A stretch of DNA of 52,333 bases, the filler included, from Sphacelaria rigidula (taxonomy: Eukaryota), in NCBI GenBank assembly GCA_964200075.2. It is 4 parts of 4 records of this genome, joined end to end, with 100 filler letters (N's around TTAATTAATTAA, not from the genome) between each part and the next. Parts side by side here need not be neighbours in the genome. Positions count along the whole stretch, not along the records: positions 39,327 to 52,333 come from CAXNAA020003235.1; 3 more parts are not named here. The stretch is one strand, 5' to 3'. A program made the position numbers and the translations under genes. The notes below the pieces were generated by a model that had not been told where the DNA came from, made no database searches, and saw nothing but the letters and a program-made list of their open reading frames with translations. Positions 27,040 through 52,333 of the stretch are shown one piece after another; the first letter of the stretch is position 1, and each line of letters opens with the position of its first letter.

Positions 27040-27332
27040 CCCCCACACTTTTAACTCCTCCCCTTCCTCGGGATGGGTCCGTGGTCTCAAGGGATCATCC
27101 CATCTCTCCCCCGGTACGCGCCTTACACTTTGGTCTAGCGGATTGTGTCAGAACTCCCGCACCGCGCCAACTCACGTCAAACAAACCCAGTCGACAACTT
27201 TGTTTACTCACGTTCTCACGCATTCCACGGTGGAAATCATACATTACGAAGGAGAAAAAAAAACGAATCGGGAATCGAACCCTTGTTCTCTCCACCCAAA
27301 TGGCGACAGACGGACCATTACACCACCGGGGC
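27040..27332 (-). mobile_element. tRNA-derived SINE (family copy 2)
   Basis: Minus strand reads CCCCGGTGGTGTAATGGTCC..GGGTTCGATTCCCG (A and B boxes); the body matches 17043-17341. Confidence 0.85.
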
Positions 27333-36046: not shown

Positions 36047-37029
36047 CTCTCGTCTCCTTCGATGCTAGCTATGGCACCATGCCCGCACCCGATCGAAGAG
36101 CTAGCAATTGTTGCTTGCTGTTTGTTCGATTGCCATTTTCGTATACAGTCGTACAGTAAGACAGCCACAGCTGTAGTACTGCACAGAACAGTACAAGTGT
36201 ACAAGTACATTTGCGGAGTCTCTTTTCGCACAAACTAAATATGGGTCATCATATTTTGATCGTTCTTTCCAGAGTGTTAGTCTTGGTCTTGCGCCAAAAT
36301 ATAGAAAACAAATATGTGTGTAGAAACTTTGTAGAAACCCGCATTATTTGTTGTCATTGCCTGTTGCAGGTTGTTCCATTGCTGTTGCTGTTGCTGTTGT
36401 TGTTGTTGTCGTTGTTGTCTTCGCCCGGACTTGGCCCGCACACAAAAATTATTGCACTTCTGAATAGAAACTTAGGGGATGGGGTGATAATAGCTTCCGC
36501 TTCATATTCCGAAAAAAATGTTCTGGCTCTGCGGCGTTCTTTCTCGATTTAACCAATGCTGTGTTTTTTTACCCGATGACGTTCAATAACACCCTCCTGA
36601 GAAACGAGGTCTTCACTCCCCATCAGTTCGACAACATGAAACTTGGGGGCTGTGTCCTGAACACGACCTGTTTATTTTGCCAATACTTATGGAATCGAGG
36701 ACCTTGAAGTTGTGGGAAAGAGTAACACGCGAAAAAATCAAATCATACACGCAATTATAAAGTTTGCTCAGGTTGCCCGCCGACTCCTGTACTGGCCCCG
36801 ATACACAACCGGACAACCCTACAAATGATCGCTTAGCTTTACCGACGGGTATCATGAAGTAGCCTAATATCAACAGCACAAACATGAAAAGGACGGATAG
36901 TTCAGCGGCGCCGATTGTCCTTGACAAGGCAAGCGGTGGCGCACTGCTCCTTTTACACATCCACTGCTCGGTGACCAGTGCCGCTTTGATTGGACTGATA
37001 TCAATCAAAATACATCACATCGTAAAAAG

Positions 37030-37170
37030 ATGGCTGCGAAACAAGATATCTCCCCAAAGGATACTGGTGTCAAGAACAACGGCCATATACCCACAAGTCT
37101 CAAGTTCGGAATAGCCGGTGCCAGCGGCGTCTCGGCATGGATGTTCGTCCACCCTATGGACGTGCTCAAG
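37030..37170 (+). CDS. Mitochondrial carrier (SLC25; 2-oxoglutarate/malate or dicarboxylate carrier-like), exon 1
   Basis: MAAKQ...KFGIAGASGVSAWMFVHPMDVLK| contains the start of signature PX[DE]XX[KR]; AAG|GTTGGC donor. Confidence 0.9.
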
Positions 37171-38151
37171 GTTGGCGCTTTTCATCGTTACGTTATACTG
37201 GTGGTTGTTCGTCTTTAGTTTTGTCACAGAAAATGGCGAGGTATCGCAATTTGAGCGTGGCGACAAGCTCTTCAGATGTTCCTCCAGTGAGAGATTCAGA
37301 CCGTGACTTAGCTATGAGAAACCATATCCTGAGTTGCACCTATTTCCTGGGGAACGAGGCTTGGGTAGGTGTACTTGTTAGGCGTGGAGATGTTCGTCGT
37401 ATGATGATTACAACTCACGCACCGAAGGGTACCAACAGTGCAGTTCTTGATTGTTCTGGCCCAGTCCATTTTTCTTCAACTCCGCTTCTGTCTGTGCGGC
37501 TACTGGCTCATGTGTACATGTTCCTCGTGGTGAGATGTCTTGGCCATGCTCCGCACTTACTATGCTGGTCCTGTTTCCAGTATTTCCAGTACGACGTGGA
37601 GGATTCGAGATGACGAAATAAGTCGGCCGGGGGAACACAGAGTTACCGTACTGTAGGCGTACGTACTGGATAGCCGTTGTTTCAAGACACCCCATCTCGT
37701 GAAAAGGGAGCGTAATGCTTATTGTATCCCGTGCTCTGCATTTAGGATGGTGGCTGCATCAGGTAGTTCAGCACAGCACAGGTCAGGACCGGTCAACATC
37801 TGACGGTTTTCGTCGCCATACCGTACTCGTACACCGCTGAGACGGCGTGGTTCAGTACAAACTGTACAAGGCAGGTCAACTACAAGTCATGTTGCCAAGA
37901 TATCACGGCGGCGACGAGCTGTCGAACAGAAGCCACAGATGCTGATTCCGCGCCAACAGCGAATACCGCCACCACAAAAGCGTCATGACAAGATAGGACA
38001 TGGAGTAGTTGCCACTCAAAATCATCTCTCTTCAAGTAGAGTACGGCAATACCCTTCGCCAACATGACCTCTGTGACAGTTGTTCGTATTCACCCGCACC
38101 ACATGCATCGTCCATCGACACCCTTTCCCCCCTTTCGTCGACCACGTCCAG

Positions 38152-38313
38152 GTTCGAATGCAACTCGGAGCCGGGGGCGCAAGCCCTGTAGCAGCCGCCA
38201 AGTTAGTGTATGGCGAGTCAGGCATGCGGGGGATGTACGCTGGGCTGTCGGCAGCAGTCACCCGACAGTGCGTGTACACAACGCTAAGGGTCGGGCTGTA
38301 TGACTGGATTCGG
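38152..38313 (+). CDS. Mitochondrial carrier exon 2
   Basis: VRMQL...GMRGMYAGLSAAVTRQCVYTTLRVGLYDWIR resembles OGC/DIC GLSA.L.RQ.TYTT.R.G.Y; CCAG acceptor, CGG|GTGAGA donor. Confidence 0.92.
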
Positions 38314-38780
38314 GTGAGAGGGGGTGCGGCGATGGCGAGTAGCTGCACGATTGCCGACCCTACGCTACTTGTGCGACCATCATGTTGTGATTTATCAAAC
38401 CAGAAGGGAGTAGCGATGCCGCAGACCGAAGATGCAACAATGGCCCTAGATTCCTCTTGCTTTGAAATCGGGCCTTGGGTTTGGCGCTGGGTTGATGCAA
38501 GCGCAGCTTGGCGATGTAAATGAGGGCGGTTATTGTGGGGATAACCCGTATTTTCGAGGATGAAGTCGAAGACCATGGAGCCAGCGTGGCGTGCATTCGC
38601 GCATTGCCAGTGCGTGTTCGGCACCATACGATAGGAGTTCAGCAAGAAATGCGCCGTTGCGATTGCGGAACGTCAATGGGTAGCTCCGACTGTACCCCGT
38701 TCCATTGAAACCAGCATCACGTTAGTGCGTCTTCGTTCCCGCGGCGATCCCCATGCCATGTATCTTCGTAACGGTTTCAG

Positions 38781-39226: not shown

Positions 39227-39326
39227 NNNNNNNNNNNNNNNNNNNNNNNNNNNNNNNNNNNNNNNNNNNNTTAATTAATTAANNNNNNNNNNNNNNNNNN
39301 NNNNNNNNNNNNNNNNNNNNNNNNNN
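39227..39326. other. Artificial scaffold-joining spacer
   Basis: 100 bp of N with TTAATTAATTAA. Confidence 0.97.
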
Positions 39327-40838
39327 TTTTTGAGTATTTGTGTGTCCTTGCTGTGGTGGGGGGGGGGAGGGGATTGTTGTGGGGGGGGGGGGGGGGGGGG
39401 GGGGGGGGGGCGCACACATTTGTTCAGTACATTTAACCGGCGATTTCATGGTTGAGTATTACTTGATCTGAGCGTGAACAATGAGCGTCGGAATTTTAGT
39501 GGGTCCGACAGTGCCGTGTGCTCCTCGCGTGCGCTGAACGCGTTTTCGATTAAATCGGCGCCACAGGCGCCGATTCGGGGTGTTACCAAGGCCACACCTT
39601 GCCTGTGTAACGTGTGTACCGTCCTTGCGCGAGGGTTCTCGGTATGCGTTGGGTTGGGGTTGGGGTTAGGGGTAGCGATAAACTGTGTCAATCATGGACA
39701 TTTGTAGCACAACGCTGGTAAACTAGCCTTTCATTTGCTGCTTGCCTTAGTCGTTGCACCTTCGACCACACATCCCTTCCCAGACGACTTTGCGCTTGCA
39801 CGCCTTAGCCAATAGGGAGGGAGGGGTAGAGAGAGATGTTGACTGGTGTTCTCATGACTCCTTCAAACCGGTGCCAGTCACGAAAGATAGAATGGATTCA
39901 TGAAACGTTGCCCTGAACCAGGGCTCACTTTCGGGGCACGCTACCGTGTGCAGCCACACCAGCAACGGTTCATGTGTGCTTTCGCCACCCCGCATGAGGG
40001 CTGCAGAGACACACGTTTATTGAGGAGTTCTTCACACGCCGCGACCATACTCACATACCATGCGCAACCGGCGGGGTATCAAAAGAAGGCTGGAGAATCC
40101 GTCTCAACAACGGAACCAGGTGACACGTCGAAACGTTCGACACATCGGACAGCTCATGCGCTACCCAAAATAATTAAATCGAAGATGGCTCCTAAATCCA
40201 CTGATCAAGGACACAAAATAAGTGATGGCAGGATCTGAGAAGCCAAAGCGCGACCTTTGAGCTACTCGACGTGCTCGGCGTCCAACGCTGTAGGGAGCAA
40301 ATGTGAAAAAATGAGCCAAACGATCTAGCCCATGATCCGAACCAGTACATTAATAAGAAGTAATATTCGGGGAGGTCATGAGCTGTTCGACGTGCGAGAC
40401 GTTCACAAGTCATTCTGCACTACAGACAGTAAGTAGGTCACAAAAGCAACGCACCATCAACGCCCCGAAGAACTGCGCAAGTTTCAATCGCGGCACGACA
40501 ACACCTCCTCCTCAAGAACAACGTATTTGCCATTCATACGATCTGATCGTCGAATAGCATTGCTGCTACATAATCTATCGCTGGGCCGTGTAGAGCAAAG
40601 GGGCCGGGCCGTAACCACACGTATTCTTCGTCGAGTGTTGCGACAAGGGCGGCGCTAGAGAGGTGACGAGACAGGTGGACTTCCGTTTCGAAAAAATAGA
40701 CCTCAACCGGTACGACCACGGACAACCGAGCTCGAGAGCGCGGGACGGCTGCATCACGAAGAAAACTGTTCGGAACTACAAGAGTCAAAATTCCGAACCC
40801 AGACCTATTTTTTTCCTCGCTAACATCCTAGATCTCAC

Positions 40839-41477
40839 TTGCAATCATGCGTCTTCGCCAGGTGTTCACGCAGCTGCCACTTCTTGGCAAAGGCCATGCC
40901 GCAAGTACGACTCCCCGCCCCAACGTCTCCTCCCTCCTTCACCCCCTCCCCCACCTTAGCTCCCGCAGCTCCATCATCACCAGCACTGCTTTCTCTATTC
41001 CTGGTCTTCTTCTGGGCGATGACATAGTTGCACTTGAACGGCCGAGGCCCCTCGTGGATAACCTTGACGTGACGCTTGAGATGATAGTTATCAAGGAAAC
41101 TCTTGCCACACTCCTTGCAAGCATGCTTCGACCGGATAGCCGCCGTCGCAGCATCCATCTTGTCGGCGGCGGCACAAGCCGCAGCTCCGGCCGCTGCATC
41201 AGGTTTTGATGCTTTCTCACCGGGCCGATCGCTCCCGTTTTGCGGCCCATCCTGTAGAGCCTGCAGCGGACCTTCAGCGGACGGTACCGCAACACGTTTT
41301 GACGCTCGCGAAGGCGCGGATGCACCTGATTCACTCACCGAGGCGCTCGAACGGCGGCTTCCCCCTCTCCTTCCCGAGACTGCGCCTGGCGTATCTGAGG
41401 CAGCGGATGCTCTCTTGAGGGAGTGAGAAAGGGAGTGCCGTGTCAACTTGTCCTTGGTGGCGAATGCCTTTCCGCAC
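40839..41477 (-). CDS. C2H2 zinc-finger protein, TFIIIA-like, exon 2 (fingers 2-4)
   Basis: CGKAFATKDKLTRHSLSH, CKECGKSFLDNYHLKRHVKVIH and C..CGMAFAKKWQLREHLAKTH; CTGCAG acceptor (phase 2) matches exon 1; AA|GTGAGA donor. Confidence 0.88.
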
Positions 41478-41669
41478 CTGCAGTTATTTGTTTTGAGTAG
41501 ATCGGGGCGGGCGGGCGGCGGCGGGGGGGGGGGGGGGGGGGGGGGAGGGGGGGGGAGGGGGAAATTTACCACGGGGGAGGGGCACCCCCACGGAAATGTT
41601 GAGGAGAAAAAGGGNNNNNNNNNNCTCTCTTCGTAGGTGGGCCGCTGCCCCCCGGGGGGGGTTTTGTGT

Positions 41670-41717
<48 letters not shown>

Positions 41718-41879
41718 GCAAGAGGTGTGAAGAGCGAAATTTACACAACGGCTAGAGTACACCACGGAATATTTCAAGAGTAACAAGGGTAAGCGTCATA
41801 GTAGGGTAGTGTAGGGCATACTGCGGTCGCGCCCGGTAGTCTGACTGGTTAGTCATTACTACTTTCTCATATGTCGCAC

Positions 41880-42272
41880 TTTGATCCCCTCCCCTTGCTC
41901 GGGACGAGGCTGTGGTCTCAAGGGATCATATCTAACATCTCTCCCCGGGACACGCCTTGCATTTTGGTCTCGCGGGTTGGGTCATGACTATCAGCACTCC
42001 CGCACCGCGTCAACTCACGTCAAACAAACTCAGTCGACTACTTTGTTTACTCACATTCTCACGCTTTCCACAGTGGAAAGCAGATACTAAGAAAAAACCC
42101 AACGCATCGGCAATCGGACCCTTGTTCTCTTCACCGTAACCCTTAGACAGCGAGGTTAGTCTTCTGTTGAATCGGCATCAATTTCAATTGAAAAGCAGTA
42201 TGCATGATCCAGAAAGACTAATCTCGCGGTTCAAGAGTTAATGGCGACAGTCGGACCATTACACCACCGGGG
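41880..42272 (-). mobile_element. tRNA-derived SINE (family copy 3), interrupted by a 98-bp insertion
   Basis: Same body and head (CCCCGGTGGTGTAATGGTCCG) as 27040-27332, with extra DNA at 42140-42237. Confidence 0.85.
42140..42237. mobile_element. 98-bp palindromic MITE with piggyBac-like ends
   Basis: GTAA|CCCTT..GCGAGGTTAGTCTTCTG...CAGAAAGACTAATCTCGC..AAGAG|TTAA; absent from the other two SINE copies. Confidence 0.65.
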
Positions 42273-43621
42273 CGACTGGTATACCTCCAAAACTAGTTGG
42301 AGCGGAGATTATGGCATGGTTCCAGAAAGATACGGGGGAGGGAGAGGGGTACTCATATGTTGCTTGCCTTGGCCATTTGACCAAATTGACCACCCATCCC
42401 TTTCAAGACGAAGCACCGTTCCTATTCCTCGTGAAAACAATTCCCAACGTTCGGGTGCTCATGACGTTCAATTCACACACTACACAAGAAACCCTATTAA
42501 CATATTTTATCTCCCTTGCTGTTTCGCCGCCTGTGGCCACCATCCATCTCCTTGGTACAGCGATCGTTTTTCTCGTTACTGTCTGCTGTACCAGACGATT
42601 TCACGCCACCTTCGTCTACCTCCCTCAGGGGGGACGGGGGACGGGGGACGGGGGACGGGGGGGTAGTCATGATCTACCATGCCGTAGTCATAATAACCAT
42701 TGACCTTACATCCCTACAAAACCGGGGCGGAGCACGGCTTTTCGCCAGACCAGGCTCGCACTGAATCACAAAGCGCCAACCGCCGTGGTGTGCTCGGCGA
42801 GTCGCATCCCCAGGGGCGGGGAGGGGCGGGGAGGAGGGGGTTGCGACACGTGTCTCATTTCAGTCGTTGAGGACGTGAGGAAGTGGGTAGCACAGAACAC
42901 GGGACGAAAGTCGGTGGGGGTTCGGAATGCTGATCCAATCCACCCAGCCAAATATCATACATGTACTGGGGGATAGATGAGTTGATTCCTCTCCACTATT
43001 GGCTCACCGTGAGGGAGAGGGAGGGGAGGGGAGGGGGGGAGCATGGTCTGCGGCTGATGAAGCCTTGCGGAATCCACCGAAATATCCAAATCAAGATATA
43101 AAAATATCATAGGTGGGACAGGTTTCAGCGATTCAGCTCCTTCTTGGCTACCTTTACTAATATACACTAAACTGAACTACTTCTCGAAGAATGAAATATT
43201 TTTCATACCTCCACCCGATTGTTATGTGAGTTCTGTAAGCCTCCCATACCGCTTTTGACAAGATACCCGGTTGCGGGTACGGTTTTCTGTGCAACATTCA
43301 TACCCCTACCCGACAGCTTTTGTGAGTTCTGTACAGAAAGTTTACCCGTACCTGGGGCGCGGGTATGCTGTTGAGGAAATAGCCGATTGCCGCTACGGTT
43401 TTTCTTCAAACCTCTCATTCCGTACCCGTCAAGTTCTGTAATTTCTTCAAGACTTTCAAACCGGTACCCGACAGTTTTGCAAATTCCGTGAGATTTTCAT
43501 ATCGGTGCCCGATATTTGTAAGTTCGGTGAGGAATCTCATACCCTACAGAACAGGTCCGTACCCTGCAGAACACAACCTTGGTATTTTCGGAGGGTCGAC
43601 ACGTTACACTCGTTGCGTTCA

Positions 43622-43780
43622 CGTTTCACGTCAAAAGTCATCAAAAGTTAAGCCAGGCTAGTACTACGGTGGGGGACTATGTGGGGAGCCCTGATTTGAC
43701 TTGATTTTCGAAAAGGGCTTCCCACCTGGTTCCCGTCCCCCACCGTTGTACTAGCCTATCTTAACTTTTGACGTGAAACG
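43622..43780. repeat. Palindromic element whose arms resemble the 5S rRNA internal control region
   Basis: Left arm AAGTTAAGCCAGGCTAGTACTACGGTGGGGGACTATGTGGGGAGCCCTG; the right arm is its near reverse complement. Resembles eukaryotic 5S GAAGTTAAGC...TAGTACTACGGTGGGGGACCACG.GGGAAGCCC (from recall, not aligned). Confidence 0.7.
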
Positions 43781-45749
43781 GGACACGACGCGGTACGCCG
43801 CGGGTCGTTCTTACTTTTGTGGGTGGAGAAAGAGCGGCGAACAGACTTCAAGCGAGCCCTCGGGGATCAGCCACACGGGACTCACCAAGTGAAGATGAGA
43901 GCAACCCCCCCACATCTCGTATAAACAGTCGCGTTGATTTGAACACACAACTCAGACCGTGTTTTCTCGAAAAAAATCGCATCGAAAAAAGTGCGGTGGG
44001 GAAGAAAAAATGCGATCTGATTGGTCGCCATATCAACGTACATGACGTGGACATGATGACGCGAACTGCCCTGACCCATCAGACCGGAATATTTCTTTTT
44101 CGCCACCCTTGTTCAGTCGAAAAATAATGAGCCAAGGGCGTGCCTCAGGCCGCTTCTCACAGACTGAAAAAATTCACAGAAGAAAGTTCGGGCGGACGAC
44201 TTCTCTCAGGTATTTTTTCAGAGAAGTCAGGTTCCAAAACCCCACCTCATCGTCTACGAAAAAATCCTGAGGATTTGTAGACCCGAGGTCATCATACAGC
44301 CTGCGTGCAGACGGTGGTGGTCATCATTTGCATGTTGTGCATATGCCACCTGCGGTAAACCAACACATAAATAATACCGTCAATGTACAGGATAGATGGG
44401 ATGGCACCACACACACGTAGTAGCTCCTGGCATAATAGGGATCAAAATGACAGGCGTATCAACTTTTATTTCAGCTGACCGCCGCTTGGTACAGTAGTAG
44501 TGTCGTAAGCTGTGACGTGTGCAGCCGCACACAACAAACTCACGTGACCAAGTCAGTAGCGCGGTATCAACCGTTTCAGTACACAGAGTACTACAGAGTT
44601 CACAATCGGTGGCGGGTACGGCGAGCATGAAACGATACGAGCAGTCAATACAGTCAGCAGGTGCGACACATTTAATAGAAGAGGATGCACCAAGTGCTGC
44701 AGCAGCTATGCTGTTGCTACGGTCCTGTGCATACAACATGCATAGCTACCTTTGCACTCACTGTACTACACTTGTATGCGAGGAGTGTGTGATGGAACGT
44801 CACTTTCCAGACCAAGCAAAGTCTCTGGGAACTGACGGCTTTTCCCACTGAGATTTGGAAAAATCTCGCTGTCTGGAAACGGGTGTCAGTTTCCAGAAAC
44901 TTTCTTCATGAAAAATGGCCTTTAAAGGTCGCGTTTTGAAAATTTTCTGCGGCGACTTTTTTCAGTCTTTAAAAAGCGCTCCAAGCACAGTTCTTTTCGG
45001 TCGGAAAAAATATGCGATAGATTTGATTTGTGCGAATTCGTTCGTTTTTCGCCAGCTCGGTCCAAGCGAATTCGCGAGCTTCCAATCGAAAAAAAGACAA
45101 GTGAAAATCGTGAAGCGGCACTTGTTTGCTTGTCCGCGGTACAGATGGTACGCCTGCACTATTTGAATACAGCGTGTCTTGAGTGTGTGGGTGTGCGTGT
45201 TTCGTACAGGAGGATGGGAAAGAGAAGCGGGAAACGTGCAGTACAGACAGCGCAGGATTATTTTTACTCTCTGCTTACGATGTCACGTGGAAAGCATCCG
45301 AACAACGTGCAGTTGTGTTGCTTGCGCTGTACATGACCGTGTTCGCAAGCCGGTCGCCCACCCTATCGCACAGTCAGTTCCGTCGCTGATTCCTACTCGT
45401 ACCATGAAAGAACATGAGGAACAGAAATGCTGTGGACCCATCGATCTACTTCTTCTTTTCTGCCGCACTTTTTCGATCGAAAAAAATGTGATGAGACACG
45501 CCCCGAGCACCTTGTTTTTCAATCGAAAAGGTGCGGTGGAAAAGAAAATAATCGATTTGATAGCTTTTGATTACAACAGAAACGACGTAGAGATGAATGA
45601 TGACCGATCCTGATATGTTGACCCTCTTGGGACCGGGCCTCCAGAACGACCAACGAGGCCGGTGAGGGATGACGCGTCCGGCGTCTGCACGAAACAGTGG
45701 CTTCATGTTGCTGAAACCCACGCATGTAACCGCAGGGTCAGGAGGGAGA

Positions 45750-46210
45750 CCGGAAGTTTCATTACGTAATACACATCTGATGCAACAAGCAGTATGAGTC
45801 GTCGTGGAGAGCTTTCGACAGGATGGGGGGACCGGCGGGCCGCCCGCCACTTGAGGCTTTGGATGATAATACTTTCCGCGTCACCTTGCCACACAGACCT
45901 TTGTGGTCGGGGTGAGCGGCAAATTGTCTTCGAAGGGTATGGGCGTTGAAGCGGCGCACATACATACAGTACAGTGCATGCAGTACGTCTCTCCGACTGC
46001 AGCAGCAGCTGCCGCTGCATACTCCCTTGCACGTTCTGGGCAGTTCTCAGCTACCGTGATCAACTGCCTGTATACCGCTGCTTCGTCCCCGCCCACTACA
46101 CAGATGTTTACGGTGTTCTGCAAGCCATCGGCAGAGGGACAGGCGAAACTCATGACTATAGCCCCTTCTCTCTTCCCACGGCCCAGCTGCGTTTAGTGCC
46201 CTCGAGAAAA
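45750..46210 (-). repeat. Dispersed repeat family A (inverted copy)
   Basis: Reverse-complement similarity to 24960-25400 and 51950-52333. Confidence 0.85.
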
Positions 46211-46274
46211 TAACCGCAACGTAGCATGTACGCTTTCCCTGGTTTCCCCCCCTTATCATGTGTTCGTGTAATTA

Positions 46275-46530
46275 CTACGTTTAGAATAGGCTGGCGACCC
46301 CGAAAAACATTCGGGAAATCACGGGAGCGCTATACTGACTGCAAGTAAAACAAGAAATCGTTGCCCGACCATCCGGGCTTTGCGCACCAGGGCAGGCTTC
46401 TCTGGGCCAGGGACAGGGCCCCCACACGATCTTGGCAGTGACTTCAAATTCGGTAACAATCCCCGCGCTGGTCGTTCGGATCTGGTCGATAAATTTCGCC
46501 TCGCCGTGATTGGGCAGTTCACTCCCTGAC
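46275..46530 (-). repeat. Repeat family B; inverted copy at ~50895-51150
   Basis: CGCTGGTCGTTCGGATCTGGTCGATAAATTTCGCCTCGCCGTGATTGGGCAG vs CTGCCCAATCACGGCGAGGCGAAATTCATCGACCAGACCCGAACGACCAGCG. Confidence 0.85.
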
Positions 46531-47750
46531 TTTTATTTTCTATTTTACCAACACATGGTCAACCCCGTGTTCGTTGGGGGGTCGGTCCCAAAAGGGTTAC
46601 GATCGGAATTTCGATTTTCCGCCTCGCCTTCCCGATCGAAAAATGTTTTGCCTGGACACGGCCCGAGACACAGCCTCAACAGAGCAAGCTAGTTGGTAAC
46701 ACAACCAAGCGCAACAGCAGCACACTACGTCACACACCTGTGTTCGGCCGTGTCTTAGCACATTATTTATCGATCGAAAAAGTCCCGATATGATGGGTCA
46801 TGTTTTCAACCATCTTCAAAGTTAACGACGATGGTTGAACTCACGACCCATAAGATCGGAATTTTTGCTTTCCACCGCACAATTTCGATCGAAAACGGAT
46901 GTGCGAAGACAGGCCATGACACCTGTGACACCTCATGGAATAGAAGTTCGCACGCCCTCCAAGCTGCGGGTACTCTGATTGGTTCATCTGAATTCCCGCT
47001 TCCAGCTGGTCCAAAACCTTTGGGACATATTTCTGCGAAACGGGATTCACATTCGCCGCCCGAATGGTACTTGTGTTGTGTCGTGTGTGTATGTACTATC
47101 TGCACAGCTAGCTACCTACAAAAGGGGTTTTTGATAAACCACATTTCCGACGAACTTTGGTATCTCTGGACCAGTCTGTTTCTAGACGGGATGGCCGGCT
47201 AATGAGTCATGTATCTGGAGAACACGTTCCATATCGGAGAACTTTCGTCCCCGAAATCTCAAAATGTAGTTTCGGACGAACTCACCCGAAAAAAAACGAC
47301 CGAAACTTTTCCAGCCTGAACTTTTCGGATTGTGACAACCGGTGTCACAGCACACCTACTGCTACCTGTTGTGGGTACGAGAACATGCAATTGCACCGCG
47401 CAACTCCAGTTCGCAATGTGTACAGCAATCAAGCGGCACGGCAGGCACCGGCAGTATAGCTCAAGGAGCGTGGGAATGACCTACGCTGGTAACAAGTCAG
47501 ATGGCGTACTTCTTTCATCAAGTGAAATGTTGATAAGTGACGCCTGCGGTGATCAACTACGCAACGCTAGTGGCCAAACTAAACGCCATGATATGTGATA
47601 GCCGTGATCGCTATATAGCAATATGATGGAACGATGAAAATACTAGGTACAGCAGGTAACAGGAGGGGCTGAGCGTCGCTTTTCAACACAGTTCGGGGCT
47701 ACACGCACGCACATCTTCACGCACGGAATCCACCCCTTTCTCCCGACTCA

Positions 47751-49519
<1,769 letters not shown>

Positions 49520-49577
49520 ATGTCTGGCATGCAAGTATCCACGTTCCATGGCGTGAAGATCTACAATCTCTCTTCAG
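49520..49577 (+). CDS. NOL10: Nucleolar protein 10 / Enp2 (SSU processome), exon 1
   Basis: MSGMQVSTFHGVKIYNLSSG| matches the conserved NOL10 N-terminus (MQVSSLNEVKIYSLSCGK); strong CAG|GTAAGC donor. Exon 2 was not found in the window. Confidence 0.75.
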
Positions 49578-50524
49578 GTAAGCCGTCTATTAATTATATG
49601 TCTGTTTGTCCTGTACAATGACATGCTACGTAGTACAACACCCCGGTGTTGTGTTGTTCAACCCTGTTGAACTCTCGACTTCCTCATAGCAGTACGATCC
49701 TGCGTCCCTGATCGCTCCTGATCATCAAAACTTATCGGATAGAACTTCCCATTACGTGATTCTAGTTAGTGTACCTCGTCCCTGTTTTCGAGGAATACCA
49801 AGGGTACGCTGGTACCTGTGCGCGTTTCCTTGAAATTTGGCCGTACATTCTGTTGTAGACACACATAGACGCGGCACACCGCAGCTCCGCATAGTTGTTC
49901 GGTACTCCCTGCACTGTCGTTACAGGACAAGAAAACTTAGACTGTACTAAGCGGAAGCATCACAGGCTGTTTGAGCAGCAGTAGCACGAGCATGTGTACC
50001 CGAGCGCAGCTGGCAGTCCCGTGGGTTGGCAATCTTGTTCCTTTCGGATGATATGTAGGCGTTCGTGCCGAAGATGTTACACGGACTGTAGGGCTCGAGT
50101 TGAAGCAGTCATGTTCCACAGTATCAATGGTATTGAGCCCACAGAAAAAAAAAACATACTGGCAATAGAGATTATCATAGTCAGCACGGACAGTTGGCTC
50201 AGCCGGCGTGGGTCGGCAGTGGAGGAATCAGCATGGAGAAGCGCAATCGGTTGCTGTTCGATACCTGTCCCTGTCCGGGAGTTACTGACTAAATTAGTAC
50301 TGCGTTGTCAGAGCTACGGGCGCCAGTCTGTACACACGAGTACTGCTGCTGACTTTGTATATCCATCACATCACGTGTCACTTCGTTGATGGGAAAATTA
50401 TGTTGAAAATAGAAAATACTCCGCAAAGCCTGGGGGAAGTGGAAGTTGGCTGATCACAATATTCCACACGTTGGACGAGTCATAACTCGTCGAAACCAGT
50501 GCCCTCGTGAATGTTTTTGAAAAC

Positions 50525-50825
50525 GCAACGAGCATGACTCGTGTGCTCGAGGCCTTTTTTTTGTTTTACAACGAGTAATCACTCGAGTCCTTGCCCTACG
50601 AGGTATTGACTTTTTCCACAACGAGCGATGACTCGAGTGCTCGCCCTATTAGTTTGTTTCCACCACGAGCAATGACTCCAGTGCTCGCCGTATTATTTTT
50701 TTTCACAACAAGCAATGACTCGAGTGCTTGCGCTATTATTTTTTATCCACAACGAGCAATGACTCAAGTGCTCACCCTAATAATTTTTTCCACAACGAGC
50801 AATGACTCGAGTGCTCGCCCTATTA
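50525..50825 (+). repeat. 43-44-bp tandem minisatellite (~7 units)
   Basis: Unit CCACAACGAGCAATGACTCGAGTGCTCGCCCTATTA(T)n; unit starts at 50621, 50665, 50708, 50752, 50795. Confidence 0.92.
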
Positions 50826-50894
50826 ACACTTTTGCATGGGACCGACCCCTCACTAACACAAGGTTGACCATGTCTTAGTGAAATAATATAATAA

Positions 50895-51150
50895 TAAGTA
50901 AGGGAGCGACCTGCCCAATCACGGCGAGGCGAAATTCATCGACCAGACCCGAACGACCAGCGCAGGGACTGTTGCTGAGTGTGATGTCACTGCAAAGATA
51001 GTGTGGGGGCCCTATCTCTGGCCCAGGTGAGCCTCCCCAGGTTTCTAAAGCCAGGGTGCTCGGAGCATGGCTTATCGTATTACTTGCATTCAGTATAGCG
51101 TTCCCGGGGTTTCCCAGGAGTTTTTTGGGGTCGCCAGCCTATACTAAAAC
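50895..51150 (+). repeat. Repeat family B copy
   Basis: Inverted match to 46275-46530. Confidence 0.85.
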
Positions 51151-51949
51151 GCACCGCTCTGGTCCGGACTATAGGGCCGTTCCAGAAAATCCAAAATATA
51201 AGGCCGATTGGGACTTTTGCGTGTACGTGACGTCCCAGCACTTGTATACGCGATGAAATGCATCTAAATAGTGTCAGGGGGGATGCGAGGGGAAAAAAAT
51301 GTCAAGGTGACCAGGGGACACCAGGAACCCATCCCCGAGTTTCTACTGTCTATAAGGCGAAAATGTCTGATCTGCTCCGTTCGGCCGTAATTTAAAATTG
51401 GCCGTTGATCTTCTCCAGGAACATTAACAAGCACGCACATGTTGGAACAGTGGGGATGCAATAACATGTTCCCCGGGGTGACCAGGGGATGACACAATAT
51501 CATCCCCGGGTTTCCAATGCAGCAAAGTCCCGCTGCAAAACACCGTTGTTGCTGCCTTGTAGGAGCTCATCTATCACTGCCCTTCGCTCATGCGGGTTGA
51601 GATTCTTTCTATTTGGGCTCTCGGCATCATTTTCAGCGCTAGACATGTCCCTTCACACCGTGGGAAGGTCTCCTACTGCCACTTTGAAGTTATCGAGCTC
51701 TCAGTACTGCTGCTGTGCGCTGGTGTATGTGTGCGGGACTGTGAGTTTTTTTCTAATACCCGCGCAAACGCACGCCCGCACACGCGGCGAGTCTAAAAAA
51801 AAACGGTTTAAAAAAAATCGGTCCCCAGCAGAAGTTATGCCGCAAAATGTCTGGAGCGGACCTATATTCCGGACCAGAGTGGTAGTAATTACACTAACAC
51901 AGGATGGCGTGGGAAAGCCGGGAAGGAGTGTACATGCCACAATGTGGTC

Positions 51950-52333
51950 ATTTTCACGAGGCACTAAACCCAGGTGGGCCGTGGAAAGACAAAAAGAGTT
52001 ACCGTTATGAATTCTGCTTATCCCTCTGCCGATGACTTGCAGCACACTGTGAACATGTATGTAGTGGGCGAGGATAAAAAAGCTGTGTATAGGCAGCTGA
52101 TCTCCGTCGCTGAGAACTGCTGCAGTGGGAGAGGCGTACTGCACTTACTGTACTGTACTGTACTGTACTGTACTGTACTGTACTGTACTGTACTGTACGT
52201 ATGTGCGCCGCAACGCCAATACCCTTTGAAGAGACTTTGTAGCATGCAACAAAGAGGGAAATGGCGGCCCACCCCGACCACAAAGGGCTGTGTGGCAAGG
52301 TGATGGGGCCATCATTACAATCCACGGCCACAA
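51950..52333 (+). repeat. Dispersed repeat family A copy with an expanded (TACTG)n tract at ~52146-52196
   Basis: Matches 24960-25400; the GTACTGTACTG motif is expanded to about 10 units. Confidence 0.85.

Follow-up and report, generated by a model that had tools for sequence, protein, structure and literature searches.

The question raised by this locus is why a palindrome that resembles 5S rRNA lies inside an intron of a TFIIIA-like gene of the brown alga Sphacelaria rigidula, and whether it forms part of a feedback circuit or came to rest there by coincidence. TFIIIA is the factor that switches on 5S rRNA genes. The palindrome is imperfect and occupies positions 43616-43787 (172 bp) of the window, by which we mean the whole stretch of DNA analysed (52,333 nucleotides, filler included). 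This stretch consists of four pieces of about 13 kb each that were artificially joined by three linkers of the form N44-TTAATTAATTAA-N44 (13012-13111, 26120-26219, and 39227-39326), and the element lies on the piece 39327-52333. Because of this joining, genes to the left of position 39327 are not neighbours of the zinc-finger gene, as is the case for a mitochondrial-carrier-like frame on the plus strand at about 37000-38500. The reading that we prefer, with middling confidence, is that the element is a decayed foldback in which a truncated 5S rRNA pseudogene was duplicated in inverted, tail-to-tail orientation and which would have no dedicated function.

The host of the element is a C2H2 zinc-finger gene on the minus strand. 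Its intron extends from 47751 down to 41478 on that strand (6,274 nt, GT..AG, phase 2), with the donor GTGAGT at 47751-47746 and an acceptor ..CTGCAG that ends at 41478, which bears out the proposal of the initial annotation that the element resides in a 6.3-kb first intron. The intron splits zinc finger 2 (..FACKEPG / CGKAF..), the next exon continuing as CGKAFATKDKL... A partial database protein of 444 residues from Sphacelaria rigidula (P0001), 100% identical, also joins KEPG to CGKAF, and the intron boundaries agree with tblastn of the orthologues. For the upstream coding exon (47752-48740, minus strand), the product is an acidic, low-complexity N terminus followed by finger 1 and by finger 2 up to the split; the downstream coding stretch (40847-41477, minus strand) encodes the second half of finger 2 together with fingers 3 and 4. 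The contig ends at 39327, so that the window lacks the counterparts of fingers 5-9 of the orthologues. The element is separated by 3,964 nt from the donor and by 2,138 nt from the acceptor, and the intron has one internal run of N (41615-41624).

Orthologues of the host protein were recovered by protein search from Pylaiella, Ectocarpus, and Hapterophycus, together with a EukProt entry. The orthologues P0002, P0003, and P0004 carry nine C2H2 fingers of the F-x-C-x3-G-C type, and the Hapterophycus orthologue is a fragment that starts exactly at the exon after the element-bearing intron. Among PDB structures, Xenopus TFIIIA (1tf6) was aligned with an E-value of 1.1e-19, its fingers 1-2 falling on the same two fingers of the query, and yeast TFIIIA (8ffz) with an E-value of 5.5e-17 over one stretch of about 145 residues (431-576 on 141-280), while generic poly-zinc-finger proteins outscored TFIIIA both in PDB and in the protein search. 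The top named ESM Atlas clusters were TFIIIA of chordates and streptophytes (score 0.96), and Pfam returned generic C2H2 families only. In the protein search all orthologues were named "unnamed protein product" and animal poly-zinc-finger proteins dominated beyond brown algae; as these names are uninformative, the TFIIIA identity rests on the nine fingers, the collinearity with the PDB structures, and the ESM Atlas clusters. The same three lines support the earlier designation of the host gene as TFIIIA-like, and on this comparison we consider it likely that the gene is a TFIIIA orthologue.

Gapped local alignment of the left half of the element with the reverse complement of the right half defined two arms, 43616-43692 and 43714-43787, with 60 identical bases out of 67 aligned. 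They thus differ by 7 substitutions, to which three indels of 1, 10, and 6 nt are added: a 1-nt gap, a tandem duplication of 10 nt in the left arm (about 43639-43648), and an insertion of 6 nt in the right arm (about 43729-43736, in the helix IV/loop D part). An inverted-repeat search returned inner arms at 43641-43677 and 43735-43771 (37 nt, 92% complementary, 57 nt apart) and outer arms at 43619-43638 and 43764-43783. At up to 3 mismatches, a 26-base core of the arms occurred twice in the whole window, for a chance expectation of 0.00. The minus-strand RNA of 43600-43800 folds as one long hairpin of -104.4 kcal/mol, compared with a mean of -57.3 +/- 4.6 for 200 shuffled sequences, none of which was equally good (z -10.3). 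The inverted-repeat search, the gapped alignment, and the fold all confirm the palindrome at the place where the initial annotation had put it.

That annotation had also claimed a likeness of the arms to 5S rRNA and had suggested comparing them with the Rfam model RF00001. At gathering scores, the whole window gave no match to Rfam. In a lax search of the region 43500-43900 (401 bases, 4227 families), RF00001 matched the plus arm (43633-43705) with 20.1 bits and an E-value of 0.098, which is below the gathering score of 38 bits; loop E with helices IV and V was aligned, and the helix II/III domain lacked 53 of its model positions. The minus arm alone had no match to RF00001 at E-values up to 10. 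With a plus arm under the cut-off and a minus arm without a match, neither arm is a 5S rRNA gene.

We also searched a metagenome collection for exact matches to GCTAGTACNACGGTGGGGGAC, a string of 21 bases common to both arms. It yielded 55 matches in 53 loci, and every one of the 53 carried RF00001 above gathering at the matching place (20/20, 20/20, and 13/13; 40-107 bits). The environmental 5S genes fished in this way end in T runs and, judged by their sequence, the 53 loci are eukaryotic nuclear 5S genes. In two of them (L029 and L032) the 5S gene lies just downstream of the 3' end of a eukaryotic LSU rRNA, in a third (L049) it adjoins a U6 snRNA gene, and in a fourth (L046) there is a tandem pair 727 bp apart. 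Aligned with the commonest environmental 5S gene, the left arm reads AAGTTAAGC (43645-43653, plus strand), then lacks 10 bases, and then continues with 24 identical bases (43654-43677). The AGTAC motif named in the initial annotation is present in the element.

A 5S profile built from 18 environmental genes detected both arms, and nothing else in 52 kb, when used with nhmmer. The plus arm (43634-43695) was matched to 5S positions 48-109 with an E-value of 8.2e-11, and the minus arm (43794-43712) to positions 22-108 with an E-value of 1.6e-8, its alignment having a gap of 10 bases and an insertion of 6; both E-values are inflated, because the profile genes had been chosen with the arms' own 21-mer and the test is partly circular. 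A flank-only profile, from which the 21 fished columns had been removed, placed the arms correctly and in the right order with E-values of 2.3 and 2.8, which are not significant alone. For this reason the homology of the part 5' of AAGTTAAG to 5S positions 22-48 is only suggestive, whereas that of the arms to positions of about 49-109 can, from the alignments, be taken as certain. The claimed 5S likeness was accordingly upheld, both by the 20.1-bit match of the plus arm and by the 53 of 53 fished loci that are 5S genes, and by sequence both arms are to be regarded as derivatives of 5S rRNA.

What remains of 5S in each arm is a fragment, roughly from position 30 or 49 to position 109 or so. Both arms lack helix I and the 5' strand of helix II, which make up the 5' third of 5S, and a deletion of 10 bases that is common to both corresponds to the 3' strand of helix II. 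The occurrence of the same 10-base gap in both arms indicates that the 5S fragment was damaged before it was doubled; neither the deletion nor a palindrome was present in any of the 55 environmental GCTAGTACNACGGTGGGGGAC matches. An RNA-aware excision, with the end of helix II as the exact starting point of the arms, had been considered; it was dropped because the outer alignment is weak and the start of the palindrome falls at about 5S position 29-30 and not at 22. When folded alone, the plus arm retains the helix V-loop E-helix IV hairpin, at an ordinary energy (z -0.40), and the minus arm adopts no 5S-like fold and is no better than its shuffles (z +1.13); a real environmental 5S sequence folded in the same manner gave the textbook three-way junction.

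The left arm has its 5S sense on the plus strand and the right arm on the minus strand. As the host gene is on the minus strand, the left (plus) arm is antisense to the gene and the right (minus) arm is sense to the host pre-mRNA. The right arm is the more decayed of the two. The spacer between them (43693-43713, no strand) runs into an exact palindrome of 10 bases, TTTTCGAAAA (43705-43714), which is centred between 43709 and 43710, and consequently each arm, read on its own strand, ends in four T. The left side of the spacer is longer by 13 bases (about 43692-43704), and these are similar to the 3' end of 5S.

In the preferred reading, the element would go back to a 5S fragment already without its 5' third and without the 10-base 3' strand of helix II. 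An inverted copy of this fragment would then have been made, with a centre of zero length (TTTTC/GAAAA), either by snap-back repair or replication, or else the fragment may have come in as a small mobile element of palindromic form; the zero-length centre, the common deletion, and the later drift fit with both a snap-back duplication and a mobile element of that kind. The two arms would then have diverged by the 7 substitutions in 67 bases and the three indels, and the relic would nowadays be transcribed within the intron, fold as a long imperfect hairpin, and leave with the intron. The 7 differences in 67 bases and the indels of 1, 10, and 6 nt argue that the arms are drifting, and that they are kept neither as a perfect hairpin nor as a 5S fold. 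If the relic is neutral, its location in the gene for a 5S-specific factor is a coincidence.

Linkers aside, about 7 distinct close-range inverted repeats were found in the 52 kb, so that small palindromes are ordinary in this DNA. Other palindromes are present in the same intron at 44818-44903, 45453-45546, and 46778-46866, two of which are mutually related, and within the 6,274 nt of the intron 1,428 bases correspond to repeats that also occur in other parts of the window, which indicates that this intron collects repeats. It is the decay of the arms, together with this abundance of palindromes, that makes us favour a neutral relic, at roughly even chances.

Further repeats were recorded in the window. 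The same intron contains short palindromic repeats with TCGATCGAAAA-type cores at 45453-45546 and 46778-46866 (and 46633-46927), with a part copy at 43981-44021. These repeats look like small foldback or MITE-like elements, and the centre of the 5S palindrome, TTTTCGAAAA, is similar in look to their cores. Larger palindromes are found on other contigs at 4189-4539 (148-nt arms, 86%) and 21959-22236 (135-nt arms, 72%), for neither of which did the 5S profile search reveal a relation to 5S. Dispersed repeats pair 46280-46532 with 50896-51148, 45786-46300 with 24860-25386 and 51882-52333, and 41869-42139 with 17073-17330 and 27046-27296; from sequence, repeats common to the intron and to unrelated contigs suggest that the genome has repeats of very high copy number. 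Homopolymer-like runs of G or C, 47-58 bases long, occur near the acceptor end of the intron (41504-41561 and 41670-41716), and others at 2442-2500, 11395-11499, and 39348-39430; open frames on the minus strand translate them into runs of proline.

The location of the element is the one thing that speaks for a function. A 5S-derived sequence inside the gene of the 5S-specific factor is the arrangement that land plants use for feedback, an analogy that is hard to dismiss and that stands as a counterpoint to neutrality. Were 5S-derived fragments scarce in the genome, it would be improbable for one to land by chance in a particular gene of some 10 kb. Assuming a genome of some hundreds of megabases, we estimate that the chance would be well below 1% for a few tens of such fragments, and would reach several per cent or more for thousands of them. 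The remaining 52 kb of the window contained no second copy of the element, while several other repeats of the intron recur there; this excludes only very high copy densities and is weak evidence against a family of very high copy number. Sequencing runs searched with an 801-base stretch gave 6 entries from 3 studies that contain part of it, with a best share of 0.68 and no RNA run among those listed. Neither a target-site duplication nor another mark of transposition could be established for the element. Of the two, a 5S-derived palindromic repeat that landed by chance, which the initial annotation itself had named as the alternative, is more likely than a feedback element, and we regard feedback of any kind as doubtful.

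One form that feedback might take is a DNA site. The TFIIIA protein would bind the 5S control elements in the arms, chiefly those of the plus arm, and an excess of TFIIIA would lower its own mRNA, either because Pol II is hindered in its own intron or through a Pol III complex with short transcripts that stop at the central T runs. Scoring of box A, the intermediate element, and box C against the consensus in PMC3369914 gave 0 mismatches in box A and 1 in box C for the plus arm, a further counterpoint to neutrality, and these values equal those of a real environmental 5S gene (L003; 0 and 1); a second environmental gene (L045) had 0 and 0. The spacing between box A and box C is 30 in both environmental genes but 20 in both arms, which counts against such a site, even though a deletion of 10 bp is about one helical turn and would leave both boxes on the same face. 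The segment from the intermediate element through box C (43654-43677) is identical over its 24 bases to the commonest environmental 5S gene, yet such identity to foreign 5S genes is expected regardless, since this is the most conserved part of 5S, with invariant columns. The minus arm has 1 mismatch in box A and 3 in box C, the latter being split by the 6-nt insertion, and the likeness of the arms in the box C part (22/25) is no higher than upstream of it, so that no local constraint is visible. With the box A and box C consensus, the four T after each arm on its own strand, and a TFIIIA-like host gene, a TFIIIA site and even a weak Pol III unit are conceivable, and binding of TFIIIA to the DNA of the plus arm is, from these motifs, possible; as an explanation of the element, feedback at the DNA level appears unlikely, whichever of the two routes is assumed. 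A plant-type RNA switch that evolved independently is highly improbable. In such a switch a 5S-like structure in the pre-mRNA would bind L5 or TFIIIA and alter the splicing of a poison exon or the retention of the intron, as has a precedent in land plants, where a suicide exon of TFIIIA harbours P5SM, to which L5 binds (PMC3378873). The element lies within a TFIIIA-like gene with one arm in the sense orientation, and there are candidate splice-like strings on the minus strand (CAG/GTGGGA in the minus arm and TTCTGCAG near 43565). Against the switch, the sense (minus) arm has neither an RF00001 match nor a 5S-like fold, helices I and II are missing from both arms, the antisense arm, only 21 nt away, would capture the sense arm in the -104 kcal/mol hairpin, the better copy of 5S (the plus arm) is on the wrong strand, and the element is remote from both donor and acceptor, at the distances given above, with no exon evidence. 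Of the P5SM-like feedback put forward in the initial annotation, the 5S-derived element in the first intron of a TFIIIA-like gene is supported, and the evidence tells against the RNA mimic in the pre-mRNA, in that the sense arm lacks an RF00001 match, folds no better than shuffles, and would pair with the other arm.

The hairpin itself has been weighed as a source of small RNAs: an intronic hairpin of about 80 bp would be diced into small RNAs of 5S sequence that act on 5S rDNA or 5S RNA, so that 5S silencing would be coupled to the transcription of TFIIIA, or it would be a plain miRNA-like locus. The hairpin is very stable on both strands and weak matches to miRNA precursors were obtained, of which mir-3158 scored 32 bits for a cut-off of 97 bits. 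All these matches are far under their cut-offs, however, and reflect hairpin shape only, and comparable palindromes are common in this DNA, so that we judge this source quite unlikely; assignment of the region to an miRNA family was rejected as a shape artefact. A different kind of alternative, rather unlikely in our opinion, is that the element is one copy of a dispersed mobile family of 5S-derived palindromes (MITE), which is a special case of the neutral relic with transposition in the place of local duplication. The palindromic shape, the size of about 172 bp, and the intronic site suit such a family, terminal inverted repeats are present in that the whole element is an inverted repeat, other small palindromic repeats recur in the same intron, and 5S-derived mobile elements exist in animals and plants (PMC10946416). 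It has to be set against this that no second copy occurs in the 52 kb and that the 6 bases GGGTCG, although they flank both sides, do so at unequal distances from fuzzy arm ends, which gives no clear target-site duplication. None of the 55 metagenome matches had the deletion or the palindrome, a weak point because these collections hardly sample brown algae. The junction string AAGTTAAGNNAGGCTAGTAC had 2 matches in prokaryote genomes and 1 in a viral contig, in collections where brown algae are likewise hardly sampled, and all were discarded as unrelated coding-like sequence without the rest of the arm.

The decayed foldback that we prefer can be placed next to several known systems. P5SM, the plant 5S rRNA mimic in TFIIIA pre-mRNA, was reportedly described in 2009 by Hammond and others and by Fu and others. 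It shares with the present element the presence of 5S rRNA-derived sequence inside the TFIIIA gene itself, although the lineage is here another one and the origin would be independent. P5SM is a single sense copy with a 5S-like fold that binds L5 and is placed in a conserved, alternatively spliced exon, a suicide exon of 175 nt according to PMC3378873, whereas the brown-algal element consists of two inverted fragments without helices I and II, its sense copy has no 5S fold, and no exon is known. The 5S-derived mobile elements given in Table 2 of PMC10946416, namely 5S SINEs (SINE3/AmnSINE1, OS, 5S-Sauria, and Ped-1), the Cassandra TRIMs of plants, and Ajax of ribbon worms, are similar to it in being dispersed non-coding DNA with part of a 5S gene that includes the internal promoter. 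In these elements the 5S promoter is at the head of the SINE or in direct LTRs, whereas in the 52-kb window the brown-algal element showed no tail, no LTR, and no second copy; that table has no stramenopile entry and no palindrome among the 5S-derived elements. With MITEs and foldback elements it has in common that it is an intronic non-coding palindrome of about 170 bp in a repeat-rich genome with small palindromes nearby, and it differs from them in that no clear target-site duplication and no family members were found in the window and that its arms come from a cellular RNA gene. Finally, 24 contiguous identical bases, box A, box C, and T-run features are shared with true nuclear 5S genes (RF00001), from which the element departs by its 20.1 bits for a cut-off of 38 bits, the absent 5' third, and the deleted helix II.

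In our literature search, which had most subscription journals outside its scope, TFIIIA genes with a 5S-derived element were reported from land plants only, and no paper joined TFIIIA, 5S rRNA, and a brown alga. The matches listed for exonized 5S rRNA or TFIIIA were all on plants or viroids or of a general kind. Papers on P5SM with TFIIIA dealt, among the matches listed, with plants, viroids, or synthetic biology, those on a 5S rRNA mimic with alternative splicing dealt with plants throughout, and for 5S rRNA pseudogenes with inverted repeats nothing among the matches listed was relevant by title.

The more far-reaching proposal, which we offer tentatively and think rather improbable, is that a 5S fragment was co-opted by brown algae, independently of land plants, to work as a feedback sensor within intron 1 of TFIIIA, with a design unlike the plant RNA switch. 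The sensor could take the form of paired convergent 5S control regions occupied by excess TFIIIA, perhaps with Pol III, or of a hairpin that yields 5S-directed small RNAs, forms to which the same reserve applies. If this were true, it would be a second, convergent case of control by the 5S system over its own transcription factor, exerted by a captured copy of the factor's target. Multicellularity arose independently in brown algae, and a functional element would thus mean convergent evolution of a feedback circuit in a lineage that became multicellular separately. With 60 new brown-algal genomes (10.1101/2024.02.19.579948), dozens of public genomes and transcriptomes of brown algae make the question answerable. 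If the element is instead a fossil, it would be the first palindromic 5S-derived repeat noted for a stramenopile in the literature searched, and a warning that suggestive locations arise by chance.
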